Virus record (IMG/VR): IMGVR_UViG_3300025853_007458
DNA: 64,000 bases
Direction: 5' to 3' (one strand)
Origin: an uncultured virus (IMG/VR IMGVR_UViG_3300025853_007458)
Lineage: Duplodnaviria; Heunggongvirae; Uroviricota; Caudoviricetes
Shown: in pieces, positions 5,733 to 53,687 of the stretch
Numbering within the stretch: the first letter of the stretch is position 1
How the letters are laid out: every line of letters starts with the position of its first letter
Translations under genes and position numbers: made by a program
Notes under the pieces: model-generated
The model's database searches: none
What the model saw: the letters and a program-made list of their open reading frames with translations, nothing else
What the model was told of the DNA's origin: nothing

Positions 5733-5738
5733 TTTTAT

Positions 5739-5767: not shown

Positions 5768-5768
5768 G

Positions 5769-7953: not shown

Positions 7954-7958
7954 ATGCC

Positions 7959-7973
7959 TATTTATTATAAATA
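7959..7973. promoter_or_regulatory. Overlapping divergent T4 late-type promoter boxes
   Basis: TATAAATA on + (7966-7973) and AATAAATA on - (7966-7959), between divergent genes. Confidence 0.6.
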
Positions 7974-8032
7974 TAACTAATATAATCTTATATTTACATT
8001 CCCGAACATTGCAGATAACTAGGAGGTAGTCT

Positions 8033-35219: not shown

Positions 35220-35536
35220 CTATTATCAAATTTAGTAAAAAATAATTTATTAAATGCTATTAGTAATTGTTCCTTTGCTAATGTTTTAAATCTTGTTTGT
35301 TTAAATAAAAAGTCTTCTCTTTCATAAGCCTTTTCTATAAGATACTCGTAAATATCTTCATTGTGTTTTTCTAGTAATGCTCTATCTAAAATTATATCAT
35401 CACCAAACAACCACTTTGATCTCTTTACAAATTTAAGCAACCTTTGAGGTATCTTATCTGTTATATCAATCATATTATTGTTATCATCTACATAACAAAA
35501 ACTAGTGACATTTGGACTTATAATTATTTCATTCAT
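35216..35536 (-). CDS. Hypothetical protein
   Basis: ORF translationally coupled to its neighbours on both sides. Confidence 0.7.
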   Translation of the reverse strand: MNEIIISPNVTSFCYVDDNNNMIDITDKIPQRLLKFVKRSKWLFGDDIILDRALLEKHNEDIYEYLIEKAYEREDFLFKQTRFKTLAKEQLLIAFNKLFFTKFDNR

Positions 35537-37303: not shown

Positions 37304-38135
37304 ATAATATTTCCGCTATTCTCACTTGTCCTAGTGCGTTAGGGTGTCTGTCCAATTCAGATACTCTATGTTTTTCTTTTAATAGACTTTCAATAGTGTA
37401 TCCTTCTAATTTTTGATCTGTGGGCCAACCTAAAAAATTATCTTTAAACTTATATCTGCTACTTTTTAAAGTTTTTAAATAAGTCATCATCATGGTATCA
37501 CGTACATATTCTATTCCATGTTTTTGCATTTCCGCAAATTGTTGAAATTTATCTAACTTTGCTTGCATGTCATTTTCATTTAAAGCTGAATAATCTATAC
37601 CGTTTGTTATTTCCCAAATATGACCTCTAATTAAACTTATCATTTGAACTTGATTGTAAAAAAGTGCTTGATCGGCAACTCTAGTTTTTTGTTGTTCCAT
37701 TAAATTTTGAAACGCATATTGGTATCTTATAGTTTTATTAATCCAATATTTTATATCTCCTTTTGTATCCGTTCTAATATTATTCCAATTTGTAACATTT
37801 TTTATTATATCTCTATACTTATTGTTAGCAAAGGCTTTATCATTTCTCGTACCTGTCCAACTAGATGTTTTTTCCCAATCACGTCTTGGTGCTGATGACC
37901 ATGCAGCTATAACATGACCTACTTTATTAATATCAATTTCTGTTAAATAATCTGATAAAGAACTATAGATATATTCATTTCCCATTCCTGACTTGCAAAG
38001 ATTAACTGGTTCCATATTCATTTTCTCTGCTAAAATTTCAGGCCATTTAAGCCACGTAGTATCCATTGAGGGATGTTGCATAGAAATAAAATGAGGATCA
38101 CCCCAACTACAACCACTAACTACAAGTTTCTTCAT
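37275..38135 (-). CDS. SGNH/GDSL-like hydrolase or acyltransferase (paralogue of 36572..37303)
   Basis: 'VSGCSWG', 'NLCKSGMGN', 'DRHPNALGQ'. Confidence 0.7.
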   Translation of the reverse strand: MKKLVVSGCSWGDPHFISMQHPSMDTTWLKWPEILAEKMNMEPVNLCKSGMGNEYIYSSLSDYLTEIDINKVGHVIAAWSSAPRRDWEKTSSWTGTRNDKAFANNKYRDIIKNVTNWNNIRTDTKGDIKYWINKTIRYQYAFQNLMEQQKTRVADQALFYNQVQMISLIRGHIWEITNGIDYSALNENDMQAKLDKFQQFAEMQKHGIEYVRDTMMMTYLKTLKSSRYKFKDNFLGWPTDQKLEGYTIESLLKEKHRVSELDRHPNALGQVRIAEILYEKINSKWL

Positions 38136-38506
38136 ACTTTATTTTTTACTATTGATTTACCTTTTTCATCTAAATGATGTTCTATTTTTATATTATCATC
38201 TGGTCTAATTAAACAATGATACAGACAATTTTTAGGCACTTTACTATGATCGCCTGCCTCACCGTCTTTCATAATTTGTTCAAACTCTCTCCATTCATCT
38301 GACAATACTATTTCATCTATGTTTTCTGCCTCACTTACTTTACTTACTTTTAACATTTTTTGAAATAATGGTGTGCTTAATGTCCATTCTTGGTCGCACC
38401 AACAACAAGGTAATAGATGACCTCTATTACTCATAGCCATTTGCATTTTGCCGTTCATACATTGAGCAACAAATTTACCTTCTAGTTTATCTTTTTTATC
38501 TGACAT
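38132..38506 (-). CDS. Stand-alone SPASM/Twitch-like Fe-S domain protein
   Basis: 'AQC...MSNRGHLLPCCWCD...NCLYHC'; related to 5409..5732. Confidence 0.72.
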   Translation of the reverse strand: MSDKKDKLEGKFVAQCMNGKMQMAMSNRGHLLPCCWCDQEWTLSTPLFQKMLKVSKVSEAENIDEIVLSDEWREFEQIMKDGEAGDHSKVPKNCLYHCLIRPDDNIKIEHHLDEKGKSIVKNKV

Positions 38507-39152
38507 TAGGTCTTACGTATCCTTTATATCCTAAATTGTATTCTTTTGATTGAGGTCTTAATGGGTCATCTTCTCCCATCCACCTTGACGAGTGTAACAC
38601 TATGAACATTAAACCCTCATCTATTGCCATTTGTTTCGCCTTTTCTAAATTGTGTTCATTGTAACTAAACACTATAAACTGCCAAGATGGCGTTTGTTTT
38701 AAGTGTTTCTTTGCTTCTAACATAACTTCATATAATTTTTTACCGTCTTGGTTAACACGATACATGTTACTTTCTTCAGGTAAACCATCTATTGCAAATA
38801 TCCATTTTGCTTTAGGGTGTGCCTTAAACGCTTGTACGTACCAACTTTTAGATTTGGCAGATGAGGCATTATGTACTGTAACTTGTATATCTTTATTATA
38901 CAGGTACTCTAATATCTCAACAAACTTTGGATGATGTACAGGATCAGATAACTGACCACAAAAATTAAATGATGAAAAATAATCAGATAACTTTCTTATC
39001 TCGTCCATTGTAGCATCCCGACCATAAACTTTTCTGCCTTCAAGTGTAAAGTTAGTTTGTCTTTGACATCTCATACACTCTAAAGGACACCTATTGCTTA
39101 TGTCAATATTTATTCCTTTCTTTGATCTTCTATAAAATGCTATATCACTCAT
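38496..39152 (-). CDS. Radical SAM protein (core only; paralogue of 4654..5412)
   Basis: 'CPLECMRC', 'FCGQLSDP', 'FAIDG', 'WQFIVFSYNEH'. Confidence 0.9.
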   Translation of the reverse strand: MSDIAFYRRSKKGINIDISNRCPLECMRCQRQTNFTLEGRKVYGRDATMDEIRKLSDYFSSFNFCGQLSDPVHHPKFVEILEYLYNKDIQVTVHNASSAKSKSWYVQAFKAHPKAKWIFAIDGLPEESNMYRVNQDGKKLYEVMLEAKKHLKQTPSWQFIVFSYNEHNLEKAKQMAIDEGLMFIVLHSSRWMGEDDPLRPQSKEYNLGYKGYVRPNVR

Positions 39153-40012
39153 CTTAAATGTTTTAGTAAATTTTCTATTTTATCTTTTTGTTCAGTTAAA
39201 CATTTTGCAGGTCTTTTCCAATATACAGGTCCACCATCTTTAATAGATTTATCTCTTAAATAAATCACTTCTTTTCCTAACCATTTACATTCTTGTATAA
39301 TTCTAGGTGCAGGATCAAAGTTAGGTTTAGTGTAAACATAAGTGTCAAATAAACCTAATAGATTTTTAACAGGTACGAATACATGATTATGTTTTTGACT
39401 TATGTACTTATCTTTGTATGCTATGATACCATGTGACGTATAATTTTTTATATGTTTTTCTACTTCTCTATAATATGTTTTATTTGTTCCTAAGAATAGA
39501 TATTTAAATTGTATGTTATCTTCTATAGGTTTGTATATACTAAAGTTTATTATTTTTTCAAATTGTTCGCCTACACCATTTACATATACCTCATGGTCGC
39601 ATAAGTCAATTACTTCTTTGGGTTCATAAAAATCTAGTGCGATAGGATATTCTTTAACATGGTTTTCTGAATATACAGATATAAGTTTATTACTAAACAA
39701 ACTGTGTAATGTTAATTTTTGTTCTTCAGTATAACTATTGTAATCAAGGTATGCAAGTGTTAACATACTTCTACCCATAATCAAAGTTACGTCATCTGAC
39801 CGTGGCATATAGTCATTAAACACTATGTTTTCAAACTTTGTATAACACTCATTTATTGCGTCAATGTAATCTTGTATTATGTGTTTTTTATTGGGTATAA
39901 CAATCAGTTTGGCACTTATACCTAGGTCGTTGAGAAAACAACAATGTTCATAACTGTAATGAAACAGACCATCACCTGGTTTACTTGTACATACTATATT
40001 TACATTTTTCAT
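39149..40012 (-). CDS. Hypothetical protein (possibly GT-B glycosyltransferase-like)
   Basis: First gene of the leftward operon. 'FDPAPRIIQECKWLGKEVI' weakly resembles the GT-B 'E.F..v.lEa...G.pVI' motif. Confidence 0.45.
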   Translation of the reverse strand: MKNVNIVCTSKPGDGLFHYSYEHCCFLNDLGISAKLIVIPNKKHIIQDYIDAINECYTKFENIVFNDYMPRSDDVTLIMGRSMLTLAYLDYNSYTEEQKLTLHSLFSNKLISVYSENHVKEYPIALDFYEPKEVIDLCDHEVYVNGVGEQFEKIINFSIYKPIEDNIQFKYLFLGTNKTYYREVEKHIKNYTSHGIIAYKDKYISQKHNHVFVPVKNLLGLFDTYVYTKPNFDPAPRIIQECKWLGKEVIYLRDKSIKDGGPVYWKRPAKCLTEQKDKIENLLKHLR

Positions 40013-40026
40013 AATATATTATAACA

Positions 40027-40042
40027 TATTTATGTATAAATA
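40027..40042. promoter_or_regulatory. Back-to-back divergent T4 late promoters
   Basis: TATTTATG|TATAAATA, i.e. CATAAATA on - and TATAAATA on +, between divergent operons. Confidence 0.72.
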
Positions 40043-40079
40043 TCAATAGAGGGTAGAGTAGAGAATTAAGGAATGAAGC

Positions 40080-41930
40080 TTGAAAAAGGTATATTTTACT
40101 CAAATAAACAATCTAATTGCTGACGCTATCTTTTTACCGTTAAGTGTTGCTTACATATGGGAATATTGTAAGACACAGGTAACAGATTGGGAATTAGGAG
40201 ACATCTTCTTTGAAAGAGAGTCCGTAGAGGACTATCTAAAAAAGATTGACAATCCTGACATCTTAGCATTATCAACATACGTGTGGAACTGGGACATAAC
40301 TTGTCAGTTAGCAAGAGCAGTCAAAAAGAAATATCCTAATTGCAAAATAGTAATGGGTGGACCACAAGTGCCATTCAAACAAAGTTGGTTAGAAGACAAT
40401 ACTGACCTATGCGATATTATAGTTACATATGCAGGTGAAAGAGCATTTGCTGAAATACTAAAAGGTAACTATACGTACCCAGGCGTAATGACAAAAGACT
40501 CTTATACGCCACCTAAACCAGATAAAGAATTAAACGACATACCAAGTCCTTATTTAAGTGGGTTGATGGATAGTCTTATGCAACCTGGTAAACAATATAG
40601 TGCTATCATAGAAACTAATAGAGGTTGTCCATATAGTTGTTCTTTCTGCGATCAACAAGATTTATATTACAATAAGATTGCCATGTTTGATTATGATAGA
40701 GTAATAGGTGAGATAGATTGGATTGTAAAAAATAAAATTGACTTCTTATACTTTGGTGATAGTAATGTAGGTATGTTCAATAGAGATGTTGACTTTATAA
40801 GACACATCGCTAAACGTAGAAATGAAACTGGTTATCCTAGACAGATAGATTATAGTACAGCAAAACAACAACCAAAACGTATTGTTGAGTTGGGTGAAAT
40901 ACTTAATAAAGAAGCAAAGATAAGACGTGGTGTTACTATTGCTTTACAAAGTATGAATCCTAAAACATTAAAAGCAATCAAAAGAATTAATCTTGCAAAT
41001 GAAAAATTAGAACAAATTGTTGGCGACTATAATAAAGCAGGTGTTGATAATTATTGTGAACTAATTGTAGGTTTACCTGAAGAAACATTAGACACATGGA
41101 TTGAAGGTATAGGTAAGATACTAGAATTAGGAAGTGACCATGCGTTAACAGTACACCCTTTGAGTATTGTACCTAATACTCCTTTTTCTGATCCTGAATA
41201 TAAAAACAAATACGGATACAAATATACAAAGACAGCTGCACCTGCAGGTGGTAATACTTATCCTAAAGATAGTAATGGTGAGATTGATTATGTTGCATAT
41301 GAAAGTAAAAGTTTTAGTAAACAAGATTATATAGACATGTATTTTTTCGCTAAAGGTCTTGTGATACCTCATCACTATCATGGTGTTAGTCAAGTTGCAG
41401 CCACATATCTTAACCGAGAACACAATGTACCATTTATAGATTTTTATAAAAAACTATTTGAGTATAGTAGAAATGGTAATGGCATACTAAATGAAGAATA
41501 TAAAAATCACACAAACAGTTTGAAACAAAGTTTATTTGAAGATAAGACATGGGGTAGAACTATTGAAGGTGGCGATGATTTTCATATACAAGATAATGGT
41601 GCAACAGCTTCTTTCTTATATAAAAACATAGACAAGGTACATAAAGAAGTTATAGACATATGTAAGAAAGAATATAATGTAGATGTATCAGAAGCGTGCC
41701 AGTTTAACAAGCACATTATTGACACATACGAAAGAGATGATACAGAAAAACAATTTGATAAGAATTGGTATAGTTGGTTCTACGATAACAAACCATTAGT
41801 CGCTGTTAATAATATCGTATCTGTAGCCGTTTATAAATATAAAGATATAGTAGACCACTCAAAGCATTTATTCTGGTGGGGAAGAAAAGCCAAGAGATGT
41901 TTTTTGAAATCAAAGGAGATTATGTTATGA
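40080..41930 (+). CDS. Cobalamin-dependent radical SAM protein
   Basis: N-terminal B12-binding domain ('LPLSVAYI', 'STYVWN', 'VMGGP', 'GERAF') and 'ETNRGCPYSCSFC'. TTG start with AAGGA RBS. Confidence 0.9.
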   Translation: MKKVYFTQINNLIADAIFLPLSVAYIWEYCKTQVTDWELGDIFFERESVEDYLKKIDNPDILALSTYVWNWDITCQLARAVKKKYPNCKIVMGGPQVPFKQSWLEDNTDLCDIIVTYAGERAFAEILKGNYTYPGVMTKDSYTPPKPDKELNDIPSPYLSGLMDSLMQPGKQYSAIIETNRGCPYSCSFCDQQDLYYNKIAMFDYDRVIGEIDWIVKNKIDFLYFGDSNVGMFNRDVDFIRHIAKRRNETGYPRQIDYSTAKQQPKRIVELGEILNKEAKIRRGVTIALQSMNPKTLKAIKRINLANEKLEQIVGDYNKAGVDNYCELIVGLPEETLDTWIEGIGKILELGSDHALTVHPLSIVPNTPFSDPEYKNKYGYKYTKTAAPAGGNTYPKDSNGEIDYVAYESKSFSKQDYIDMYFFAKGLVIPHHYHGVSQVAATYLNREHNVPFIDFYKKLFEYSRNGNGILNEEYKNHTNSLKQSLFEDKTWGRTIEGGDDFHIQDNGATASFLYKNIDKVHKEVIDICKKEYNVDVSEACQFNKHIIDTYERDDTEKQFDKNWYSWFYDNKPLVAVNNIVSVAVYKYKDIVDHSKHLFWWGRKAKRCFLKSKEIML

Positions 41931-42511
41931 TAAGAGTTGGCGATATAATACCAGATATAAAAACTATGCACAAAGATAGTGCAGCCACAAACTGGTATTC
42001 TACACACGAATTATTTAAAGATAAAAAGATATTACTAATAGGATTGCCTGGCGTATTTCTTGTTGAGTATGCAGCCACACATTTAAAAGCATACGACTTC
42101 TATTACAGCAAGATAAGAGAACTAGGTATTGATGAAGTATATTTTACAAGTGTTGATAATTGTTACGTACAAAACGCATATCACAAATCAGAAAATTTAT
42201 CGTACCTAAAAAACTTACCTGACCCTAATGGTGATTGGGCCACATCTATAGGTATGTTAGAGAGTATGAGTAAAGAAGGATTAGGAAATTGTAGTCATAG
42301 ATACGCTATGATTATAGACAATCTAATTATGAAACATTGTAAGTATGAAGACTTTACACACAACCCTATGACGTGTTTTCAAGTATCAGACGCTGATACA
42401 ATGATTAAGTATTTAGAAATTATACAAACAAATTATGAAAGGTTTAATGATGACGCCAGAGATAAGGTTGACGTCCTTGGAAGAAACAAGATCAGCACCG
42501 TATTGTCGTGA
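41927..42511 (+). CDS. Peroxiredoxin-5 (redoxin)-like protein lacking the peroxidatic Cys
   Basis: 'IRVGDIIP', 'ELFKDKKILLIGLPG', 'GIDEVY..SVD', 'LPDPNG', 'GLG..SHRYAMII'. The canonical PGAFTPxC is replaced by PGVFLVEY. Confidence 0.8.
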   Translation: MIRVGDIIPDIKTMHKDSAATNWYSTHELFKDKKILLIGLPGVFLVEYAATHLKAYDFYYSKIRELGIDEVYFTSVDNCYVQNAYHKSENLSYLKNLPDPNGDWATSIGMLESMSKEGLGNCSHRYAMIIDNLIMKHCKYEDFTHNPMTCFQVSDADTMIKYLEIIQTNYERFNDDARDKVDVLGRNKISTVLS

Positions 42512-43091
42512 GCTAAAAACTCTTTGGTACGATAGAGAATATCTATTAAATCATTTAGAGAATATAGACGAAAACAATTGGTATCTGTTTGATTGTGGTC
42601 ATATAAGATGGACTGTACAAGAGGCATTTAATGCTAGACGAGAATGTAAAAACTATCCTTTTAGTGAGTTTCATTATGAGTTGATAAATCTTTTTACACC
42701 TGCAATATCTTTTGATACTGTATTGTACACACAAACAGCAATAGGTGGTGCACCACCACACCAAGATAGAAACAGACCTACTGCTTTAAACTTTGCAATA
42801 CGAGGTGAGTTTAGTGATACAAGTCCACAAGTTTTCTATGATAGTTTTGATAGAAGTACAGAAAAGTATAGAATGACATATGAGAAAAATGATATTACAA
42901 ATGAATTTGCACCTTGGATATTTAAAGGTCCTGAAATACATGGTGTAGAAAACAAGACAGAAAAAAATAGAATTATTATAACTTGTGCTTGGCGACATAA
43001 TAGTTATGAAGATATAGAAAAAAGATTACTAGATGGTACGTTAGTAAACTGGGAACAGAATGAAAAAAACAAAAGGATAAAATTTATATGA
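42435..43091 (+). CDS. 2OG-Fe(II) oxygenase-like protein
   Basis: HxD 'PPHQD', distal 'IHGVEN', 'NRII'. Start codon uncertain. Confidence 0.72.
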   Translation: MKGLMMTPEIRLTSLEETRSAPYCRELKTLWYDREYLLNHLENIDENNWYLFDCGHIRWTVQEAFNARRECKNYPFSEFHYELINLFTPAISFDTVLYTQTAIGGAPPHQDRNRPTALNFAIRGEFSDTSPQVFYDSFDRSTEKYRMTYEKNDITNEFAPWIFKGPEIHGVENKTEKNRIIITCAWRHNSYEDIEKRLLDGTLVNWEQNEKNKRIKFI

Positions 43092-43741
43092 GCAGTGTAG
43101 ATAGAACAAACAAAGCGCTTCAAAGACTTTCTACTATGGGTGATTGGTTGCAAATGAAACAACACATTAATACTAGACAGATAATGAAAGACCTTGAGCC
43201 ATACAAAGACTCATGGAAACCTTACAATTTAAGAAACCCAAATAACAGGTGGGGATTAAGTGTAACAAGTTTAGATGGCAAGTTAAGTGGTATACCTGAT
43301 TTAGATAGTTTACTACAATACAATAAGATACATGGTACTAGTATTACAAATCATCACATAAAAGAATACACCGAAGTATATGATAACTCAAAAGAATTAC
43401 AGAAACTCATTGAACCATGGAAACCTTGGTTAGGGAGATGTCACTTTCTAAAACTAAACACAGGTGGTTATTTTCCTGAACACTATGATGTAAACAAATT
43501 AGAATATGGTTATGATGAAATAAGATTTATTGCTTTCATTAACAGGTGTGATAAAAAAGATTTAAAGTTTATATACGAGGATACAGTTAGAGATGTTAAA
43601 GATGGCCAGATGTTTTTCTTTAACGCAAACAAAAGACATTCAGTTTTTAGTACATCGGACGATATTATTATGTTAGTATTTTGTATGAAGTTTGATGAAC
43701 ATTTATTTGAAAGATTAATAGAACAATATAGGTATGCGTAA
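43088..43741 (+). CDS. 2OG-Fe(II) oxygenase (Asp/Asn beta-hydroxylase-like)
   Basis: 'LNTGGYFPEHYD', 'GQMFFFNANKRHSVF'. Confidence 0.78.
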   Translation: MSSVDRTNKALQRLSTMGDWLQMKQHINTRQIMKDLEPYKDSWKPYNLRNPNNRWGLSVTSLDGKLSGIPDLDSLLQYNKIHGTSITNHHIKEYTEVYDNSKELQKLIEPWKPWLGRCHFLKLNTGGYFPEHYDVNKLEYGYDEIRFIAFINRCDKKDLKFIYEDTVRDVKDGQMFFFNANKRHSVFSTSDDIIMLVFCMKFDEHLFERLIEQYRYA

Positions 43742-44274
43742 TGTGGTATCATAAAAAATTTAAATTACAATACGATAAAAACGTTTTCAATGAGATAATT
43801 GAATATGCTGAAAGAGCAACATGGAGACAAGGGTACGATCAAAATGGTTTACTTTGGAATGTTGAAGAACTACCTTTAAACCCTAAACAGTTTCCTATAC
43901 TAAATGAATTGTATGAAGGTCTAAATACAGAATTTAAAAGACCATCATTTTTTATTAGTAATGTGAAACCTGGTGGGTTAGTAAACCATATTGACCACAA
44001 CAAATGGGGCAATCTAGGTATACCTTTGAAAGGTGATTTTGAAAATACACCTCAATACTTTTACGATCAATTCAATCATCCAGTAGAGTCATTCGTAGTT
44101 GATAGTCCTGTTATATTCAATACACGTATGTTACACGCTGTACCTAGACAGTTAACTGATACAGGACCTAGATGGGTATTGATGATGGATTTATTTGAGT
44201 GGGTTGATAAATTGTTTGCAAAGATTGACAACAAAACTATATGGACAGACACAAAGAATTTCAAAAATGCGTAA
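43741..44274 (+). CDS. 2OG-Fe(II) oxygenase-like protein
   Basis: 'PGGLVNHID', 'FNTRMLHAV', 'PRW'. Confidence 0.75.
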   Translation: MWYHKKFKLQYDKNVFNEIIEYAERATWRQGYDQNGLLWNVEELPLNPKQFPILNELYEGLNTEFKRPSFFISNVKPGGLVNHIDHNKWGNLGIPLKGDFENTPQYFYDQFNHPVESFVVDSPVIFNTRMLHAVPRQLTDTGPRWVLMMDLFEWVDKLFAKIDNKTIWTDTKNFKNA

Positions 44275-45931
44275 CTTCTATTTTCTACAGATACCTTTAG
44301 GTACAGACGCAGCCTATCTGCCACAAGCAGTAGGTACGATCTGGTCTTATTGTAATCAGTTTGAAGAAGTACGAAAGAAATATAAACTTGCAGGTGTATG
44401 GTGGAACAAAGAGATTGATATAGTTGAACCTGATTTTATAGCTGCAAGTTGTTATATGTGGAACTGGAAAATAACATATGACGCATTGAAAGAAATAAAA
44501 AAGAAGTATCCTAAATGTAGAATAGTTGTAGGTGGACCTGAACCACAATATACATCAGAATGGTGTAAAAAACATCCTGAAATAGACGCTGTGTTAGCAT
44601 ACTATGGTGAAGAAACAATGAGAAGATTACTAGTAGATGATGAACTTAACATACCAGGTGTTGTTACAAAAGACTTTAACAATGCAGCCGAGGCAGAATA
44701 TGCCGACCCTAAAATGATACCTAGTCCTTATCTTAATGGTTTCTTTGATAGTTTACTAGAAGGCAACACACAAAAAGTCAGAGCAATCTTTGAAGGCAAT
44801 AGAGGTTGTCCTTATACTTGTTCTTTCTGTGACATAGGCCATAAGAAATATACAAAGATACAAATGTTTGAAACAGAAAAATGTTTAAAAGAACTAAAAT
44901 GGATGTGTGATAGAAATGTAACTGCTATAGATGTAGCAGATAGTAACTTTGGTATATTTCCTAGAGATGAAAAACTTGTAGATTTTGTAGTAGAACAAAA
45001 GAAGGCAGGTAAATTCAATGGTAGATTTATGCCTACGTGGGCTAAGACACATGGTGAAAAGATAATGAAGTTAGCAAAGAAATTGCAAGACGCAAATGTA
45101 GATGACACTTTTGGTTTTAGTTTACAATCTACAAATCCTGAAACTTTAGATAATGTCAATAGAAGAAATGCGTTTGATATTAAGAGTTTCAAACCTATCA
45201 TAAAGAATTTAAAAGACAAAGGTGTTTCATCATATACAGAATTAATCTTTCCTTTGCCTGGTGATAGTTTAGAAACATTTAAGTATGGTCTACACGAAAT
45301 AGTTGACATGCCTGCACCATTTGATATGATACAGATTAATACTTTAAGTAGATTAAGTAATACAGAATTTAACACAGGTTTTCCTGAAATGATATGGCAA
45401 AATATTAAAGGTACTGCAAAGCCATATAACAATGATGTAATAGATGAGATTGCTGTTGCAACAGATAAGATGACAAGAGATCAAGTCTTTGAAGGTTTCT
45501 TTTATAGTAGAAGTTTCTTAATACCAATGTACTGGTATGGTCTAGCAAAGTATCATGCTGATTGTTATTATGAAATTAATGGTAATAGAAGTGAATTATT
45601 TAAAGACATATATTCAAAACTATTTAAAAACAAAACATTTATGAAACACAAACTAGATGTTAGAGAACATTATTTTAAAGCACTTAATGAGTACAAAGAC
45701 ATTGGATATAAGATACTTAATAAAGATATAAATTATTATACAGATACAGCTTATTCTCACTTGTTCTATACCGAGAATAATATATTTGATGTGTTCAAAG
45801 AAATGTATCCAGAATATGATGAGATTATTGATCGCAACAAAAAAGATTTCAGACCTATTGACGATAAGATGGAATGGCTCAGAGATATACACGTTAGAGG
45901 TAGATTTAGTGAGTCTTGGAGAATAAAATGA
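44267..45931 (+). CDS. Cobalamin-dependent radical SAM protein (paralogue of 40080..41930)
   Basis: 'YLPQAVGTIWSYC', 'SCYMWN', 'VVGGP', 'EGNRGCPYTCSFC', 'DSNFG'. Start reassigned to ATG 44267. Confidence 0.9.
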   Translation: MRNFYFLQIPLGTDAAYLPQAVGTIWSYCNQFEEVRKKYKLAGVWWNKEIDIVEPDFIAASCYMWNWKITYDALKEIKKKYPKCRIVVGGPEPQYTSEWCKKHPEIDAVLAYYGEETMRRLLVDDELNIPGVVTKDFNNAAEAEYADPKMIPSPYLNGFFDSLLEGNTQKVRAIFEGNRGCPYTCSFCDIGHKKYTKIQMFETEKCLKELKWMCDRNVTAIDVADSNFGIFPRDEKLVDFVVEQKKAGKFNGRFMPTWAKTHGEKIMKLAKKLQDANVDDTFGFSLQSTNPETLDNVNRRNAFDIKSFKPIIKNLKDKGVSSYTELIFPLPGDSLETFKYGLHEIVDMPAPFDMIQINTLSRLSNTEFNTGFPEMIWQNIKGTAKPYNNDVIDEIAVATDKMTRDQVFEGFFYSRSFLIPMYWYGLAKYHADCYYEINGNRSELFKDIYSKLFKNKTFMKHKLDVREHYFKALNEYKDIGYKILNKDINYYTDTAYSHLFYTENNIFDVFKEMYPEYDEIIDRNKKDFRPIDDKMEWLRDIHVRGRFSESWRIK

Positions 45932-46833
45932 TAAACAAATTAATATGGAATAAAGTAGAAGAATTATTTTACTGGAACATATCAGTAGATAGCCCTATCA
46001 ATCAATTACCTTTTACAATGGATTTTATTCTTGCTTGTCAAAAAGAATTTTCTATGACAGTAAGAGATAAAGAATACCCTATACATCTAGGTGGTATAAT
46101 GGATTGGCACGATAAAACAATGGGCGATTTCGTAAAAGAAATAGATAAACAATATCAAAGTAATTACTTTGTAGCAGAAAATGGCACAAGTACAACAGGT
46201 GTCGTAGGTGAAATAAAAGATGTAAACGATAAACCTATTACAAACAAATGGAATATAAGAGGTGAAGCTCTTGTTAAAAGATTACAAGCAATGCAAAAAG
46301 AAAGACCTAATTTAACAATATTAGATATGGGTTGTGGTGTAAATGAATATAAGAAACATTTAAATAATGTTACAGGCGTTGATCCATATAGAAAAGAAGC
46401 AGACATAATCTGTAGTCAAGCAGATTTTAAACCTGCTGATGATATAAAATGGGATGTAATTATATGTTTTGGTCCTCAAAACTGGTATACGTATGATGAA
46501 CAATATAGAAACTTTATGACGTTAAAGAATTGTTTAGCACCTAGTGGTCTATTATTATGGTCACATGTTCATAATTACTATAAAGTATTTCAACCAGATC
46601 ACCCACATGGTCATACTTGGATACATGGCGATTTAGAACATGCACAAAAAAATAGTGCGTTTTATTTTTATGATAGAAACTGGAAGTACACATGGTACTT
46701 TAACTGGACTGAACATGCTGTAAATACACTTGCAGGTCATGTAGGTTTAAAAATAAACAAAGTTGATTACGACCATTGTAATTTATACAGACCACCTATG
46801 TACAGAATATTTACGGAGATGACACATGGTTGA
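45928..46833 (+). CDS. Class I SAM-dependent methyltransferase with extra N-terminal helical domain
   Basis: 'ILDMGCG', 'VTGVDP', 'WDVIICFG', 'LAPSG'. ATG 45928 overlaps the upstream stop. Confidence 0.82.
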   Translation: MINKLIWNKVEELFYWNISVDSPINQLPFTMDFILACQKEFSMTVRDKEYPIHLGGIMDWHDKTMGDFVKEIDKQYQSNYFVAENGTSTTGVVGEIKDVNDKPITNKWNIRGEALVKRLQAMQKERPNLTILDMGCGVNEYKKHLNNVTGVDPYRKEADIICSQADFKPADDIKWDVIICFGPQNWYTYDEQYRNFMTLKNCLAPSGLLLWSHVHNYYKVFQPDHPHGHTWIHGDLEHAQKNSAFYFYDRNWKYTWYFNWTEHAVNTLAGHVGLKINKVDYDHCNLYRPPMYRIFTEMTHG

Positions 46834-47434
46834 ACAAGGTAACTTCTTTGTCAAATGTCATAACATTTATTACAATCAACAATGGTTGATAGATGTATTA
46901 GATAGTTTGAAACCTAGTGATTGGGTAAACGGAGTTAGTAGAACAGGCGTAGCATGGAATGTTAGTGAGTGTAGAAATATACCATATGAGAATATGTGGA
47001 AAGATATTGTAGAGAATATGAATTTAGATCAAGTCGGTAGTACAGAAAGAACATTCCATGGTGAAAAACCATGGGCATTCTTTTCTAAATTACCACCAGG
47101 TGGTATAAATTTACACTACGACCACAGACGTTGGGGTGCAATATTATTTCCTGTAAGAGGTAAGTTTGAACTCACACCTCAAATATTTGCAACAGAAAAC
47201 TATACAGAAATAGAAAGATTTAATTTTGAAAAAAGTAAGATACATGATAATGGTACACCTGTATTTTTTGATAGCAGAGTTTTACATGCTGTACCTACAC
47301 CTTTAGATTTAGAGGAAGAAAGAGTTGTATTTTCTGTTAACATACACTCACATCCTACAGAAATGTTTAAGAAAGCTGTTGATGGTACATGGTTAAATAA
47401 GAATACAGAAAACATAGGTGTATCTAATGACTAA
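46826..47434 (+). CDS. 2OG-Fe(II) oxygenase-like protein
   Basis: 'PPGGINLHYD', 'FDSRVLHAV', 'ERVVF'. Confidence 0.75.
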   Translation: MVEQGNFFVKCHNIYYNQQWLIDVLDSLKPSDWVNGVSRTGVAWNVSECRNIPYENMWKDIVENMNLDQVGSTERTFHGEKPWAFFSKLPPGGINLHYDHRRWGAILFPVRGKFELTPQIFATENYTEIERFNFEKSKIHDNGTPVFFDSRVLHAVPTPLDLEEERVVFSVNIHSHPTEMFKKAVDGTWLNKNTENIGVSND

Positions 47435-47993
47435 TTTCTATTCTATACAAGCAGATAAAATGAAATTTAATTTAGATATGTTAGTTGATCTATACAAAAC
47501 AGTAGATCAAACAAAGTGGGTACATAGACAAGATAAGTTACCACAGTATTGGCCTATTGATGAAAACAGCACGTTTGATCGTAACCATGAATTTTACAGA
47601 CTACTAAAAGAAAACATAAATGCTGATATAGATGAAACGAGAGTATATTTCAGTAGAGTACATCCAGGTGGTATACCTAACCATTGGGATTTTGAAAATT
47701 TTACTAAACTACAATTTCCTGTTATATGTGATGAAGAAGATAACGATTGGTCAAAGTCGCCTGTTATCTTTATAGATCAATTTGACCAAGTTGTAGAAAG
47801 AGTAGAACATACGAATAATACGCCTATAATTTATAGTGCGAATTACATGCACGGAACAATCAAATCTTTAGATAATACAAACGATAGAATTACTTTTGTT
47901 GTTGATATTAAGTATTGGTTTGCCAGAGTTAGATCAAAATATAACAACGGTACTTTGTTTACAAACAACAAAGCGTTTTGGAGTATGGCATGA
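47427..47993 (+). CDS. 2OG-Fe(II) oxygenase-like protein
   Basis: 'PGGIPNHWD', 'YMHGT', 'DRITF'. Confidence 0.72.
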   Translation: MTNFYSIQADKMKFNLDMLVDLYKTVDQTKWVHRQDKLPQYWPIDENSTFDRNHEFYRLLKENINADIDETRVYFSRVHPGGIPNHWDFENFTKLQFPVICDEEDNDWSKSPVIFIDQFDQVVERVEHTNNTPIIYSANYMHGTIKSLDNTNDRITFVVDIKYWFARVRSKYNNGTLFTNNKAFWSMA

Positions 47994-48646
47994 ACAGGTG
48001 GGATATAACTGTTAAACAAAGTAACTATGATTTCAATCCTTTTAGAGAAAGCGATCATGGTAAATACTTTAAGACAGTTACAAACATTTATGAGGACTGG
48101 TCAAAGGAATTAGAATATGCAAACAAGCAACAATATGATTTCTATTGGCCTAGTCCTGTAAAACCAGGTGGCGATCATTTTGATTATGAGTATGAAAATA
48201 AACTAGTAGAAGATTGGGGTATACCTAAAGACTTTGTAATCTACAGAATGTGGACTGCAACAAAGAAAGAGTGTCCTATATTGTGTGGTCTAGCAGACAA
48301 GTTAGGTTTAGAAGACGCACAGGTAAATATACAAACTCAAACTACAGGTATGATGTTACATTTACATATTGATAGTTTAACAGGTTTAAGAAAAGAGAGA
48401 AAAGATCAATCATCAAGCAGAGCAACTGATCCTGAATGGGGTAGAGTTTTTGTTATGTTAGAAGATTGGAAACCAGGTCATATTATTCAATTTGGGAATA
48501 CATATGTACCACCATGGAAAGCAGGTGATGTAGTATGGTTTGATTGGGCAAACATACCACATAGTACTGCTAACACAGGACCATGGCCTAGAACAATTGC
48601 AAAAATAACAGGTAAACAAACGCCTAAATATAAAAAACTACTATAG
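47990..48646 (+). CDS. 2OG-Fe(II) oxygenase-like protein
   Basis: 'GMMLHLHID', 'WKAGDVVWFDW..IPHSTANTG..PR'. Confidence 0.78.
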   Translation: MNRWDITVKQSNYDFNPFRESDHGKYFKTVTNIYEDWSKELEYANKQQYDFYWPSPVKPGGDHFDYEYENKLVEDWGIPKDFVIYRMWTATKKECPILCGLADKLGLEDAQVNIQTQTTGMMLHLHIDSLTGLRKERKDQSSSRATDPEWGRVFVMLEDWKPGHIIQFGNTYVPPWKAGDVVWFDWANIPHSTANTGPWPRTIAKITGKQTPKYKKLL

Positions 48647-48654
48647 GATAAATT

Positions 48655-50295
48655 ATGAGATTATTGATTATATTATTATTTTTATTTGTATCTACAAAAA
48701 CTTTCGCTGAAGACAATCGTTTTGATTGTAGTTGGGATGATGACCCACCTTGTATAGTGATTCCTGTAGGTAGCTTAAATAATTCAAACGCATTAGGTGA
48801 TAGAATAACACCTACAACAACAATTACAAAAACAGAAATAAGAGAACACAATCTAATTGATTTACCAAGTGTTTTAAATTACGTATCAACACTAGACGTT
48901 ACACAATCAGGACCAAAAGGACAAACTGGTTCTGTATTTTTAAGAGGTACAAACTCTAATCACACTTTAGTTTTATTGAATGGTATACCTATCAATGATA
49001 CATCAACACCTACAGGTGCATTTGACGTTGGGCAAGACTTTATGTTTAACGTTGTACAAATAAATGTATATAAAGGTGGTGCAGGTGCTCATTGGGGTGC
49101 AGACGCTGTAGGTGGTGCAATTAATTTTATAACAACTGTAGATTACGATAAAAGATATAATGTATCAGGTAATGGTAATGATAAAACTATAAGTGGTAAT
49201 TATTATACTAGATTAAATGACTTTGATATATCTGTTTCAGCAGGTGAACATGAGTCTAAAAATGTTTCTGCTTTATCAGGTGCTGATGAAAAAGACGGTA
49301 CAAAAAATCAGACTATAGGTGTCAATGTAAGTAAATGGTATGATATGATACATTGGCGAGCATCTTGGTTTACAAGAAATACGTTTACAGATATTGATGG
49401 TCATAGTCTTGCTGTACAAGATGACAAATGGTCTGATAATAGTTTTTATGCTTTTCAAACAGGTATAGATTACTTTAATAATAGTTTAACTTTTCATACA
49501 CACGAATATGAAAGAATTTATGATGACGCTAATTATGATAGTCAAAATTGGTCGTTAAGAGGTGTTCATCAAAGACAAAATTGGGGAATAGGTTTTGATT
49601 ATAAACATGATGAAAATTATGGTAAATCTGCATGGTCAGAAAACACAGGTAGAAATCATGGCATGGGATACTTCTTTAATTTTTCATACAACATATTATC
49701 ATATCATCATAGATTTGATGAAGACCATGAAACTTATAAAATAGGATTCTTACAAGAATTAGACGATGGTTTAAGTATAAGTGGTAGTCACTCAACGTCA
49801 TATAAAGATAAAACATTATACAGCGATGTAGTATATGGTGACTCACAAGAGGTAACGTTAACTAAAAATAACTTTGCTACTACTATCTTTCAAAATGATA
49901 TAGGTGATCTGAATACAAATGGTGTAGAGATGTCATATAATACAGGTGATTGGAAACTTTTTGCAAGTAATTTAACAAGTAAAACAAAAGATGTATTATC
50001 ATTAAGAAGACCAGAATGGTCACTTGGTTTTATTCACAATAAGAAGTTTGAAAATAACTTTACTTTAACTACTAACTACAAATACAAAGGTAAACATTTA
50101 GATATACATAACTCAAACTGGTCTACAATATCAATGCCAGAAACACATTTAGTTGATTTAAATCTAGGTTATAACTATCATGGATTTAATTTTGGTGTAA
50201 GTCTAAACAATCTATTGAATGAGAAGTATGAATCACCTCATGGTTTCTCACAAGAAGGTAGAAAGTTTACTTTAGGTTTTAACAAATCATTTTAA
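48655..50295 (+). CDS. TonB-dependent outer-membrane receptor (BtuB-like)
   Basis: Signal peptide, plug 'SVFLRGTNSNHTLVLLNGIPIN', 'GADAVGGAINFIT', 'NNLLNEKY', 'GRKFTLGFNKSF' with terminal Phe. Confidence 0.9.
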   Translation: MRLLIILLFLFVSTKTFAEDNRFDCSWDDDPPCIVIPVGSLNNSNALGDRITPTTTITKTEIREHNLIDLPSVLNYVSTLDVTQSGPKGQTGSVFLRGTNSNHTLVLLNGIPINDTSTPTGAFDVGQDFMFNVVQINVYKGGAGAHWGADAVGGAINFITTVDYDKRYNVSGNGNDKTISGNYYTRLNDFDISVSAGEHESKNVSALSGADEKDGTKNQTIGVNVSKWYDMIHWRASWFTRNTFTDIDGHSLAVQDDKWSDNSFYAFQTGIDYFNNSLTFHTHEYERIYDDANYDSQNWSLRGVHQRQNWGIGFDYKHDENYGKSAWSENTGRNHGMGYFFNFSYNILSYHHRFDEDHETYKIGFLQELDDGLSISGSHSTSYKDKTLYSDVVYGDSQEVTLTKNNFATTIFQNDIGDLNTNGVEMSYNTGDWKLFASNLTSKTKDVLSLRRPEWSLGFIHNKKFENNFTLTTNYKYKGKHLDIHNSNWSTISMPETHLVDLNLGYNYHGFNFGVSLNNLLNEKYESPHGFSQEGRKFTLGFNKSF

Positions 50296-51581
50296 TGTAC
50301 GATACAATATTTTGGGCTATAATAGGAACTTTAAGTGGTGTCATCTTTGGTGTAATACCAGGTGCAGGACCTTTTGTTGCAACGGCAACTCTATATCCTT
50401 TTCTAACACATATAGAGCCTGTCAATGTTATGATGTATTACGTAACAGTTTTGATTGCAACTAATTATACAAATAGTGTAACTGCTATTCTGTATGGTAT
50501 ACCTGGTGACGCCACAGCAATGAGTACTGCAAGATATGGTCACAAATTATTCTTAAAAGGTTTTGGTAATCTAGCAGTTGCTTCTAACGCTGTAAGTAGT
50601 ACAGTAGGAGTTATATTTGCTTTTACTGTTTTTATTTTTGTATTGCCTTGGATCATAGAAGTTTTTAGATTTTATAATAGTGTACTACAGACAGTTATTG
50701 TTGCAGCTGCAATTATAATGATTACACTATTGACAAAACAAAATAAATTGTTTACAATAATACTGTTTTTATTCGGAGGCATGATTGCAAAAGTAGGTAT
50801 AGACCCTATTACATTTGATAGTTTTTTGACTTTCAATAACTCATACCTCGCAATCGGAATACCTTTTGCAAGTGTGATGATAGGATTATACATAGTGCCA
50901 GAACTAACAAAGTTAAATAGTTTTAAAGTAGAAGTACCTAAACGTATAAATACTTTTACAGTTGGTAAAGATACAACTACGCCTACACTCATAGGAAGTT
51001 TTGTAGGATTTTGGTGTGGTCTTATACCAGGTGTAACAAATATTCTTGGCAGTTATGCAAGTGCAAATATTGTTAAAAGGTTTTTCAAAAAACCTGTACT
51101 TAAAAGCATAGCAGCCGCAGAGGCAGCAAATAATAGTGGCGCCTTATCATCACTATTGCCTTTGCTTATACTAGCGATACCCATTACGGGAAGTGAAGTT
51201 TTGATTTATTATATTATGTTAGAAGATGGTTTCGTTTTCAACGCTCAAAATACAGTCAAACATTTAGAAAGTATAATTTATATTATACCCTTTGTTACTG
51301 CCTTTTGTTTGGGGTTAAGCTGGTACGGTTTCAATCTGTTAGGTAAGATTGCATATCTCTATAAACAATATAGAACAATTGCAAACATCTTACTTCTCTC
51401 AATAATTAGCATTGCAAGTATATCAATATTCGCCATACGTGAATGGATGATTATCTGTATATTTGTTTTGTCTATAATCGGGTTCTTAATTAGACGCTGG
51501 GATACTAGTCCTATTATTTACGGATACTTTCTAAGCGATCTATTTTACGAAAATTTAATTAGAACATTAATAATCTTATAG
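50295..51581 (+). CDS. Tripartite tricarboxylate transporter large permease (TctA family)
   Basis: Polytopic; 'GVIFGVIPGAG', 'AILYGIPGD', 'GLIPG', 'AAAEAANNS'. Confidence 0.88.
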   Translation: MYDTIFWAIIGTLSGVIFGVIPGAGPFVATATLYPFLTHIEPVNVMMYYVTVLIATNYTNSVTAILYGIPGDATAMSTARYGHKLFLKGFGNLAVASNAVSSTVGVIFAFTVFIFVLPWIIEVFRFYNSVLQTVIVAAAIIMITLLTKQNKLFTIILFLFGGMIAKVGIDPITFDSFLTFNNSYLAIGIPFASVMIGLYIVPELTKLNSFKVEVPKRINTFTVGKDTTTPTLIGSFVGFWCGLIPGVTNILGSYASANIVKRFFKKPVLKSIAAAEAANNSGALSSLLPLLILAIPITGSEVLIYYIMLEDGFVFNAQNTVKHLESIIYIIPFVTAFCLGLSWYGFNLLGKIAYLYKQYRTIANILLLSIISIASISIFAIREWMIICIFVLSIIGFLIRRWDTSPIIYGYFLSDLFYENLIRTLIIL

Positions 51582-51592
51582 GAGATAAAAAA

Positions 51593-52369
51593 ATGAAAAA
51601 AATAATGTTAATAATAATGAGTATGTTGTTCAGTACAATGGCATATGCTCAAGTACAAATAATCAATCCTGGTTCACAAGAAGGTGTCTTCAGACAAATT
51701 CTTTCTACAATAGGTGATACAACTGACCATAACTTTGTTCAGGCAGATAATCCAGTTACTGCATACACTTATATTGAAGGTGAATCTAATAAACCTATCT
51801 TAACGATATGGTCTAGTGAATGGCCAGGTGACGATAGTTTGAAAAGTCCGAAAGTATCTAAAGATAACATTGTAGCTTTAATGACATATGAAACTCTTAT
51901 GTGTAGTAGAGCATACAATTCACTTGAAGATATGGGTGGACAAACTGTTAAGATTGCGACATGGGGATCAGAACCAGTTGCAAAATTCTTAAAAAATTTA
52001 GGTGCAAAATATGATGTAAATTTTGTAGTTGTACCTTATTCTGGCAGCGGAAGTACTACTAAAGGTTATGTTGGCAAAGACGCCGATACTGTCTTTACAA
52101 TTACTTCACGTCAAGCCGCATTAGAGGAAGATGGTTCTAAATGTATTGCCTTTTCAGAAAAAGGTGAATTAGGTTTTAGATTTGTTGACGCAATCATCAC
52201 CATTAATGCTAACTACGCCTTAACAAATGAATTACGTTCTGCTGTAACAAACCTCTCTACAACTACCGAGTGGAATAGTAAATTCAAAGGCTCTGTAACT
52301 TATGTTGGAAATGGTTCTAATCAAACTATAGAAATGTTTGAAGAGGCTGTTGCTAACTTTAGTAAGTAA
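51593..52369 (+). CDS. Periplasmic substrate-binding protein (TctC/Bug-like, divergent)
   Basis: Signal peptide and 'VVVPYSGSG' (compare Bug 'VPYxGG'); adjacent to TctA. Confidence 0.65.
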   Translation: MKKIMLIIMSMLFSTMAYAQVQIINPGSQEGVFRQILSTIGDTTDHNFVQADNPVTAYTYIEGESNKPILTIWSSEWPGDDSLKSPKVSKDNIVALMTYETLMCSRAYNSLEDMGGQTVKIATWGSEPVAKFLKNLGAKYDVNFVVVPYSGSGSTTKGYVGKDADTVFTITSRQAALEEDGSKCIAFSEKGELGFRFVDAIITINANYALTNELRSAVTNLSTTTEWNSKFKGSVTYVGNGSNQTIEMFEEAVANFSK

Positions 52370-53687
52370 TACAATTATGTAAGAGCTGGTTGGCATCCTT
52401 ATAGTTGTCAAACAGCTCTTGCTGATCTCTACCAGTTATGTTAAGATTTACATTAAACTTTTTGTTTTGTAGATTTTGAAATTCAGGTATATTCATACCG
52501 ACTTCTAACTTCTTATTCAGATAATTTAGATATTGTTCAACGATTTCTATATTCTTTATTTCTTTAATTACACCAGGTTTTAATTGAGTACAACCCCATA
52601 GTAGATGATTTGTAATTTCTGGTTCTTTGTTGTTACCTATATTGTTAAATATATTATTGCCAGGTAACTTATCTAATATATTAATAAACTGACCTATACG
52701 TGTATTAAAGTCTATTGCAATTAATTTTTTACCTGATATGTGAAAGTCAGGACCTGCAAAGTACATATCTTTTACTTTTAGTTTATCAACTATAGTCTGT
52801 ACGAAACCATACATTATTCTATGTTGCTCTTCATCTACTTCACTCACAGGTATAGACCATACTGCCATATCTTTTGCGATATCACTTTTCTTACTGATTG
52901 AATGTTGATCTATAGGATTTTTATGAAAGTCTAATATGTCGCCATACTTTACTTTAGCATTTCTTACATAGAATAAACAATCTACTTTACCATCTTTAAC
53001 ATAACCATAAGGTGATATAGATGGCTCTTCAGACCAATAGTATTCTTGTGCCATAATTTTACAAGGTACATTATTAAAGTTTTCATTTTGAATACCTGTT
53101 TTATTGATTTCAAAAAAATCATTATGATAATTTAGTTTACTTAAATGATCTAAAAAATGATGTTTGTTATTCCATCTTCTATACTCTATTATAGGTGTAT
53201 TCTGATCTGATTTAGGATAGAAAGAATTACTACCAGTACCGATGTCAGGTTTTGTAAAAAACTCATTGCCATCAAATACATCTAGTTGACTATGAAAGGT
53301 AGGTGTAATACTTTTAGGTACGTTATGTTGTAGTCCTATTACTCTACAAAAATCATCAAGTTTCTGTTTATTACTAAACACTTCAGCTGCAAAGGCAGAC
53401 ATATTGTTTATACCGTAATAACTTTCTAATTGTGCTTGAATAGGAAATAAATTTTCTGATACACAAAACACTTTATCACAAGATATAATTTGTTTTGTGA
53501 TTTCTATTATATCAAACTTCTTTGATACAACTAAATCGTCTATGTGTTTTATGAAAGGTTTGTAGCGATCGCCTGACTTGTTTGGCACCACATCACAAAC
53601 CAATGTGATGTGGTTATTTAAATTCGCTGTGATAAGACCTTCGGTCTTGTTAAGACTACGCTTATGTGATAATATAACTACATTCAT
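52359..53687 (-). CDS. ATP-grasp ligase-like protein
   Basis: 'SNKQKL', 'FFTKPDIGTGS', 'MAQEY', 'IDFNTRIG'. Confidence 0.75.
   Translation of the reverse strand: MNVVILSHKRSLNKTEGLITANLNNHITLVCDVVPNKSGDRYKPFIKHIDDLVVSKKFDIIEITKQIISCDKVFCVSENLFPIQAQLESYYGINNMSAFAAEVFSNKQKLDDFCRVIGLQHNVPKSITPTFHSQLDVFDGNEFFTKPDIGTGSNSFYPKSDQNTPIIEYRRWNNKHHFLDHLSKLNYHNDFFEINKTGIQNENFNNVPCKIMAQEYYWSEEPSISPYGYVKDGKVDCLFYVRNAKVKYGDILDFHKNPIDQHSISKKSDIAKDMAVWSIPVSEVDEEQHRIMYGFVQTIVDKLKVKDMYFAGPDFHISGKKLIAIDFNTRIGQFINILDKLPGNNIFNNIGNNKEPEITNHLLWGCTQLKPGVIKEIKNIEIVEQYLNYLNKKLEVGMNIPEFQNLQNKKFNVNLNITGRDQQELFDNYKDANQLLHNCITY

Follow-up and report, generated by a model that had tools for sequence, protein, structure and literature searches.

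A BtuB-type receptor gene alongside B12-binding radical SAM enzymes, and a separate TctA module, in a T4-like pelagimyophage

The uncultured virus IMGVR_UViG_3300025853_007458 encodes an operon in which genes for two B12-binding radical S-adenosylmethionine (rSAM) enzymes are followed by genes for an outer-membrane receptor, a TctA-family permease and a secreted binding protein. The operon occupies positions 40080-52369 of the window, the 64-kb stretch of DNA analysed here, which spans bases 36456-100455 within a virus record of 165,693 bp, rated complete by CheckV. Judged by its gene content, the phage is a T4-like member of the pelagimyophage group, infecting SAR11 bacteria. Its receptor is, in sequence comparisons and in the predicted fold, of the BtuB kind and closer to BtuB than to the solved receptors for other ligands. 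TctA and the binding protein, by contrast, make up a module of their own that is widespread in phages, and are not a B12 importer. We therefore favour, with moderate confidence, a reading in two modules, in which the receptor aids the capture of B12 for the phage's own rSAM enzymes while the TctA module serves a different purpose.

Of 8000 scored candidates, 854 match the receptor at E-values up to 0.001, and the best 120 of these 854 are mostly proteins of 517-569 residues from marine metagenomes. The best curated NCBIfam models for the phage receptor are two BtuB equivalogs, TIGR01779 (91.5 bits) and NF007926 (86.2 bits), with weaker matches to models of haem and siderophore receptors. When a profile of 14 receptor sequences was compared with the sequences in the PDB, BtuB was retrieved at 1.2e-31 (113 bits), followed by Cir at 2.2e-16 (63 bits) and by others at 46 bits or less. 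An AlphaFold2 model of the receptor (pLDDT, the predicted score of the local distance difference test, 74.7; predicted template modelling score, pTM, 0.77; residues 1-50 unreliable) has a plug that is followed by about 22 strands of the barrel. In a Foldseek search with this model, ranks 1 to 12 are all E. coli BtuB, with an E-value of 4e-25, a template modelling (TM) score of 0.78/0.73 and 18-19% identity, and the match is full-length, spanning about 576-585 alignment columns. Siderophore receptors come after BtuB, with PfeA first at 4e-20.

The plug and 22-strand barrel are thus predicted to be shared with E. coli BtuB (PDB 1NQE, 1NQH, 2GSK), and E. coli btuB and relatives of the phage gene are both under the control of cobalamin riboswitches. 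The phage protein differs from BtuB in being shorter (546 residues with its signal peptide), in its trimmed loops and in an N-terminal C-x-W...P-C motif, as well as in being virus-encoded, inside a biosynthetic operon. The motif is invariant in 32 receptor sequences, and the plug residues are strongly conserved over the same 32. Compared with the SAR11 form of the receptor, the barrel loops are about 75 residues shorter, through 11 small deletions.

The regulatory context of the receptor family is best seen in its cellular relatives. These were scanned with one genome per species, and the best 80 of 584 relatives were kept. The closest full-length ones among these 80 share 28-36% identity with the phage receptor, are about 615-628 residues long and lie in 38 loci, of which 37 are Pelagibacter-labelled and one is an Acidimicrobiaceae-labelled contig of a metagenome-assembled genome (MAG). 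The AdoCbl-II cobalamin riboswitch (Rfam RF01689) was detected directly upstream of the receptor gene in six of eight cellular loci scanned, at 84-99 bits against a gathering score of 36.5. A covariance model built from seven RF01689 matches, those seven matching by construction, finds the riboswitch upstream of the receptor in 31 of the 38 loci and fails to find it in L018, L027, L028, L036, L043, L049 and L056. Among eight more distant proteobacterial matches, seven have RF00174, the classical cobalamin riboswitch, just upstream. Directly after the receptor, 35 of the 38 cellular loci encode a DUF6580 protein, and tblastn places a class-B-like rSAM gene within 8 kb of the receptor in 25. Inspection of four cellular loci with Pfam showed DUF6580 directly after the receptor in three and verified a B12-binding rSAM in three. 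The neighbours in these rSAM/receptor loci include sugar-nucleotide genes and genes for glycosyltransferases.

Riboswitch, BtuB-like receptor and DUF6580 together form a conserved SAR11 unit (L018-L056, for example L053:7751-12471). This unit comes from the same low-GC marine lineage as the phage system and likewise commonly adjoins B12-binding rSAM genes in sugar or glycan clusters; it differs in that the SAR11 receptor is longer and is accompanied by RF01689 and DUF6580, whereas the window copy has neither. Its distribution also alters the picture of the host given in the first-pass annotation, which had named a streamlined cell with little B12 uptake as the setting in which import would matter: many SAR11 genomes have their own riboswitch-controlled homologue of the receptor, followed by DUF6580. 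Whether SAR11 btuB is regulated by B12 was left open in PMC9296465, at least in the portion of that paper drawn on here, and the 31 riboswitch-bearing SAR11-type loci speak to this question. One further database entry, a 2.9-kb fragment labelled Flavobacterium (L024), was excluded from the 38 cellular loci. Over residues 20-161 of the phage protein it shows 62% identity, far above that of any SAR11 gene, and its probable origin is a phage contig that was binned into a Flavobacterium-labelled MAG.

Among viruses, the receptor is found beside rSAM genes with few exceptions. A class-B-like rSAM, a putative label for the distant phage loci, is encoded in 14 of 16 viral loci with a short receptor and in nine of ten phage loci with a long one, so that receptor and rSAM adjoin each other in 23 of 26. 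In the three remaining loci the contig breaks off close to the receptor; the two contigs with short receptors are 5.5 kb long and end at the receptor itself. The first-pass annotation had named occurrence of the receptor independently of B12-rSAM genes as evidence against its reading, and such independence was not observed. Furthermore, RF01689 precedes the phage receptor gene at 73.5 bits in three loci (L010:3905-3985, L011:3276-3356 and L012:4262-4342), whose receptors are 76% identical to that of the window. In L011, the riboswitch is followed by GGAG and then by the receptor ATG. These three contigs contrast with a 2020 survey of pelagimyophages (PMC7029224), which, in the part of its text used here, reports no riboswitches in these phages. 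Taken together, the riboswitches ahead of its relatives, BtuB as the best solved match and the rSAM linkage uphold the initial assignment of the receptor to the cobalamin-receptor kind. Two viral contigs with short receptors additionally carry a permuted transfer-messenger RNA of alphaproteobacterial type (L016:4788-5143 and L017:5756-6111).

Both rSAM enzymes of the operon are predicted to be cobalamin-type members of class B and are probably C-methyltransferases. The Pfam B12-binding and Radical_SAM families are matched at 42.3 and 44.7 bits by enzyme no. 1 and at 43.5 and 54.6 bits by enzyme no. 2, with cut-offs of 32.1 and 29.5 bits, respectively. The B12-binding domain lies N-terminal to the rSAM core, and the CxxxCxxC motif is present in both translations, an arrangement shared with KedN5 and other cobalamin-dependent class-B rSAM methyltransferases. 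This class also includes GenK, Fom3 and TsrM. Within NCBIfam, both phage enzymes match best to the KedN5 family (NF033712), C-methyltransferases that depend on methylcobalamin, at 189.6 bits for no. 1 and 161.5 bits for no. 2; these scores are far below the cut-off of 700 and place neither protein within the KedN5 subfamily. The two phage enzymes share about 29% identity. Of six rSAM genes in the whole record, they are the only ones whose products were found to have a B12 domain, and no other B12-domain protein was found in the record, in which the ribonucleotide reductase is class I.

The slot next to TctA that the receptor occupies is filled differently in closely related phages. In ten phage loci with flanks 94-100% identical to those of the window, this slot holds a 129-residue DUF6580 protein (Pfam 2e-17) and a 595-residue receptor that is only 26% identical to the window receptor, and in a complete 170.8-kb phage it holds DUF6580 alone. 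The uptake accessory is hence modular and optional and, where present, occurs together with B12-type enzymes. A DUF6580 profile compared with the PDB gave a lone weak match to the S component of an energy-coupling factor (ECF) transporter (4hzu_S, E 0.0087), a weak lead towards DUF6580 being a small-molecule carrier. BtuM is a carrier of the ECF S-component kind. No description of a phage-encoded BtuB-like receptor or DUF6580 was found in the literature, subscription journals and supplementary tables not being covered.

On the two-module reading, the first and older module would comprise the cupin encoded at 43088-43741, the short TctA lacking a TctB partner, the TctC-fold binding protein and the convergent ATP-grasp-like gene, and its most likely role would be the uptake of a small carboxylate for use by the cupin and the ligase. 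The second module would have been inserted between this cupin gene and TctA. It comprises the two rSAM enzymes, the redoxin, further AspH-like cupins and the methyltransferase-like protein, and the slot adjoining TctA would accommodate an accessory for corrinoid uptake, here the loop-trimmed outer-membrane receptor of the BtuB family. Once secreted to the outer membrane of the host, the receptor may bind and transport corrinoids, so that more cobalamin would be captured for the two phage rSAM enzymes. Passage across the inner membrane would proceed via the host's DUF6580, which is receptor-adjacent in SAR11 and is carried in the same slot by the sister phages. A broader version is put forward tentatively, as something short of an even bet: pelagimyophages may possess a swappable corrinoid-uptake cassette, in some cases with its own cobalamin riboswitch, that feeds phage B12 rSAM enzymes in SAR11. 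This cassette would take three forms, namely a trimmed BtuB-like receptor, DUF6580 with a second type of receptor, or DUF6580 alone.

Several observations weigh against B12 capture by the receptor. The scores for the two BtuB equivalogs fall far short of what these models require (91.5 bits where the cut-off is 599.7, and 86.2 where it is 836), and identity to BtuB is only 18-19%. The riboswitch is present in only three of the 27 phage loci searched; at E-values up to 1, none was found in the window, where the receptor gene is separated from the upstream gene by a gap of 8 nucleotides, and none in 24 other phage loci. In L013 and L016, Pfam detects no B12-binding domain in the rSAM protein adjoining the receptor, and in L011 the match is only 3.4e-4. 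In eight phage loci B12 rSAM genes are present without a receptor, and none was detected in the five whole records checked for one; the receptor is thus dispensable. The phage of the window itself has no DUF6580, and therefore the inner-membrane step would depend on the host.

The energy source poses a further difficulty. The first-pass annotation had noted that no TonB/ExbBD or TctB gene is visible in the window, and the absence of TonB_C, MotA/ExbB and TctB matches extends to the whole 165.7-kb record. A search of four receptor-carrying SAR11 genomes likewise gave no TonB_C match. Each of these genomes has one MotA/ExbB gene, and in one of them this sole gene is tolQ, located in a tolQ-tolR-(287 residues)-tolB-pal cluster. 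A TonB-type mechanism is thus unsupported. No TonB box was identified in the phage receptor, the N-terminal residues 1-50 of the model being of low confidence.

The TctA module was characterised by sequence, predicted fold and distribution. The Pfam match of TctA (PF01970; gene at 50295-51581) spans positions 1-418 of the 423 profile positions, and all 120 relatives of phage TctA among the matches listed are 414-437 residues long. The AlphaFold2 model of the 258-residue binding protein (pLDDT 90.6, pTM 0.84) has Bug27, TctC, TphC, TBP and BugD as its top Foldseek matches (E 2e-10 to 3e-7, TM-score 0.45-0.64). Pfam TctC (PF03401) is matched neither by this protein nor anywhere else in the record, and hhalign of the binding-protein family against SAR11 TctC gave a non-significant E-value of 0.32. 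TctB (PF07331) was not found in the record at E-values up to 0.1, and the operon has no room for an extra gene. The phage pair shares TctA and a predicted Bug/TctC binding fold (Bug27 2QPQ, TctC 4X9T, TphC 7NDR) with the tripartite tricarboxylate transporters TctCBA, from which it differs in lacking TctB, in a TctA of 428 rather than the 490 residues seen in SAR11 and in a binding protein that fails the TctC sequence tests. A SAR11 genome contains a canonical tctC-tctB-tctA operon, whose TctA shares only 28% identity with that of the phage; for SAR11 TctA proteins the range is 24-28%.

To survey the module, 80 viral loci were chosen by the binding protein, and the 64 of them with TctA serve as the denominator. 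The ATP-grasp-like gene is present in 63 of these, the cupin of the 43088 type in 57, an rSAM in 23 and the receptor in 17. Neither rSAM nor receptor is encoded in 39 of the 64, and B12-binding and Plug domains are both absent from five whole records of 42-235 kb that contain the pair. Because 39 of 64 loci lack any B12 enzyme or receptor, the pair is not a B12 importer, contrary to the import machinery for this cofactor that the initial proposal implied. The module appears to be older than the B12 block, which would have been inserted into it later. In one large phage contig, L139, the genes for TctA and the binding protein have that of an FkbM-type methyltransferase between them, and a few genes from the module an SbmA/BacA-family membrane protein is encoded on the minus strand (L139:13304-14338; 4.6e-118).

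The ligand of the TctA module is probably a carboxylate, the class of compound for which the tripartite tricarboxylate transporter family is known, and possibly 2-oxoglutarate (2OG). Import of 2OG as co-substrate of the operon's cupin oxygenases is the alternative that retains most weight, although we regard it as unlikely. A cupin with weak similarity to AspH lies immediately upstream of TctA, at a median distance of 24 nucleotides in 34 loci where no rSAM is present, and in L139 its stop codon overlaps the TctA start; up to six cupin-type proteins are encoded in the operon itself. The same adjacency would equally fit the import of a substrate, however, and the near-constant ATP-grasp-like partner would equally fit the import of a carboxylate for ligation. 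Moreover, 2OG belongs to the host's central metabolites, and its use by the cupins is itself putative. None of the six operon proteins considered as cupins or 2OG oxygenases reaches a Pfam cut-off. Four paralogues (42435, 43741, 46826 and 47418) align with two Asp_Arg_Hydrox-positive phage proteins, with H-x-D...H...R invariant, and the top PDB match of the profile of this alignment is a 'Beta-hydroxylase' (7v4f, E 0.0065). These four may be AspH-like and are putative 2OG/Fe oxygenases.

An alternative for the receptor is that it is no nutrient importer and mainly serves to remodel the cell surface or to exclude, as a decoy or replacement outer-membrane protein. Its hypervariable position between baseplate/VrlC-like genes and neck, its trimmed loops and the lack of any TonB found to drive transport would all suit such a device, as would the exchange of the receptor for one of only 26% identity between near-identical phages; cassette swapping in this region could also reflect surface or host-range selection, which counts against B12 capture too. 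We nevertheless judge this alternative improbable. Against it stand the cobalamin riboswitches ahead of phage and host relatives, the steady link with B12-type rSAM enzymes and, in sister phages, with DUF6580, and the strong conservation of plug residues.

Less probable still is a single B12 import path, in which the receptor would serve the outer membrane and the binding protein with TctA the inner one. The three transport genes are adjacent and co-directional, L015 has the same trio, and the phage lacks DUF6580 or any other known inner-membrane B12 carrier. In addition to the many TctA loci without a B12 domain or receptor described above, the reverse separation is observed, as the seven short-receptor loci L008-L014, and also L016 and L017, have no TctA and binding protein. 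The sister phages have DUF6580 alongside TctA and the binding protein, and hence the two are not alternatives to each other. The fold of the binding protein is furthermore like that of the carboxylate-binding Bug/TctC proteins. The idea that receptor and TctA system import the operon's own product, such as a metallophore, is the least credible and gained no support: biosynthesis and uptake genes do share one operon and the receptor has weaker matches to haem and siderophore receptors, but no family of non-ribosomal peptide synthetases, polyketide synthases or siderophore synthetases was seen in the window, and the companions of the receptor differ between loci (Fe-S assembly and sugar genes in L011; ribonucleotide reductase, ligase and rubrerythrin in L016), its constant companions being class-B-like rSAM genes and cobalamin riboswitches.

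If the receptor does aid B12 capture, the concept of phage nutrient-uptake genes would extend from bulk nutrients to vitamins. The nearest precedent are the PstS-type uptake genes of cyanophages and pelagimyophages (PMC12379486, as far as its text is used here), where it is likewise the virus that provides a host-type component for taking up a nutrient in short supply. The present case differs in that a receptor of the outer membrane would take up an enzyme cofactor and is linked to enzymes of the phage that depend on it. DUF6580 emerges as a candidate carrier of B12, and the lack of TonB becomes a mechanistic question. Were the cassette reading to hold as well, SAR11 and its viruses would run a B12 economy that is regulated by riboswitches and linked with gene clusters of the glycan type, DUF6580 would be a new inner-membrane corrinoid carrier of the ECF S-component kind, and a receptor of the TonB-dependent type would function without a recognisable TonB, perhaps via the Tol system.

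The assignment of the phage to the pelagimyophages is made because its gp6 homologue is 59.8% identical to that of Pelagibacter phage Mosig, 55.7% to that of HTVC008M and 52.8% to that of OM43 phage Melnitz, and because it has a T4-type gene set. Baseplate genes of this type in the window are gp5, gp25, gp6, gp8 and gp9/10, together with a gene for a 2021-residue DUF4815 protein, and elsewhere in the record lie genes for portal, gp23, sheath, terminase, ribonucleotide reductase of class I, SufE and an AAA protein resembling CobS. The GC content is about 32%. The hypervariable region that houses the operon was named the host recognition cluster by Zaragoza-Solas et al. (PMC7029224, in the part of the article used here). 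Megablast of the operon against GenBank phages gave no matches, and tblastn with the receptor and TctA against the same set gave only short matches, which fell in records of bacterial type and not in any cultured pelagiphage.

The operon consists of 13 plus-strand open reading frames without breaks, which overlap or are separated by at most 11 nucleotides (Table 1). The uninterrupted unit, the two B12-binding rSAM enzymes, the receptor, TctA and the binding protein all stand as the first-pass annotation had described them; the six 2OG oxygenases and the methyltransferase that it listed fall below Pfam cut-offs, and the redoxin at 41876-42511 had been missed. A PHROG search of the operon returned the redoxin, the weak methyltransferase, one unnamed family for the receptor and nothing else. 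Pfam at E-values up to 5 gave nothing usable for the cupins, the 442-residue protein or the binding protein. The tailoring enzymes of the operon, together with the sugar genes on the opposite strand, would probably modify a glycan or a small metabolite.

Table 1. Features of the operon and its borders, in window coordinates (aa, amino acids).
Feature	Position	Strand	Evidence or remark
Divergent intergenic region with T4-late-promoter-like TATAAATA at 40035-40042	40013..40079	+	38 nucleotides ahead of first gene; weak lead
Predicted class-B (B12-binding) radical SAM enzyme no. 1, 616 aa	40080..41930	+	Pfam, NCBIfam
Redoxin/peroxiredoxin-like protein	41876..42511	+	Pfam Redoxin 44.9 bits; PHROG 2281 'peroxyredoxin antioxidant' 3e-30
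AspH-like cupin paralogue, putative 2OG/Fe oxygenase	42435..43091	+	No Pfam match; HxD...H...R in alignment
Cupin, conserved TctA neighbour in other phages	43088..43741	+	Cupin_2 8.8e-4 and Asp_Arg_Hydrox 0.036, both below cut-off
AspH-like cupin paralogue (putative)	43741..44274	+	HxD...H...R in alignment
Predicted class-B (B12-binding) radical SAM enzyme no. 2, 578 aa	44195..45931	+	Pfam, NCBIfam
Methyltransferase-like protein, weak	45916..46833	+	Methyltransf_23 23.8 bits against cut-off 27; PHROG 24759 5e-4
AspH-like cupin paralogue (putative)	46826..47434	+	HxD...H...R in alignment
AspH-like cupin paralogue (putative)	47418..47993	+	HxD...H...R in alignment
222-aa protein without family match (Pfam, NCBIfam, PHROG)	47978..48646	+	HxD...H by eye only
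Trimmed BtuB-type protein of TonB-dependent-receptor fold (predicted), 546 aa with signal peptide	48655..50295	+	Plug 62.9 bits against 23.9
Short TctA-family permease, 428 aa, without TctB	50295..51581	+	Pfam TctA 196 bits against 28.9
Secreted 258-aa binding protein, TctC/Bug-like fold (predicted)	51593..52369	+	AlphaFold2 model and Foldseek
ATP-grasp-like protein, 442 aa, convergent	52359..53687	-	Adjoins ATP-grasp clusters in protein atlas, score 0.96; no Pfam match

The T4-late-promoter-like motif ahead of the operon recurs on the plus strand of the window. Copies of TATAAATA at 12340, 17224, 18421, 27083, 40035 and 54473 lie no more than about 60 nucleotides upstream of several plus-strand gene starts. 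Across the window the motif is not enriched, with 13 occurrences found against 15.8 expected. A scan for sigma-70 promoters and terminators yielded numbers equal or close to those expected by chance and allowed no operon boundary to be drawn.

Outside the window, the record encodes SufE (C1:18463-18975, in record coordinates), the CobS-like AAA_5 protein (C1:132414-133616) and a further radical SAM protein (C1:143630-144301). Divergent from the operon, a 12-gene block on the minus strand (30569-40012) encodes a carbamoyltransferase, a DegT-type aminotransferase, a radical SAM protein and a methyltransferase-like protein. Its probable role is the tailoring of sugars, and in other phages parts of it are found again adjoining the TctA module (viral locus L157). 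A second enzyme cluster, at 3797-8223 on the minus strand, comprises a PP-loop ATPase-like gene with weak NAD_synthase/QueC matches, two radical SAM genes, an open reading frame of 116 residues and a gene for a nitroreductase-family protein. It is followed on the plus strand, at 8466-9398, by a gene for a PstS-like phosphate-binding protein (match to PBP_like_2 at 5.5e-41). This auxiliary gene had been reported for pelagimyophages before, in the part of PMC12379486 used here.

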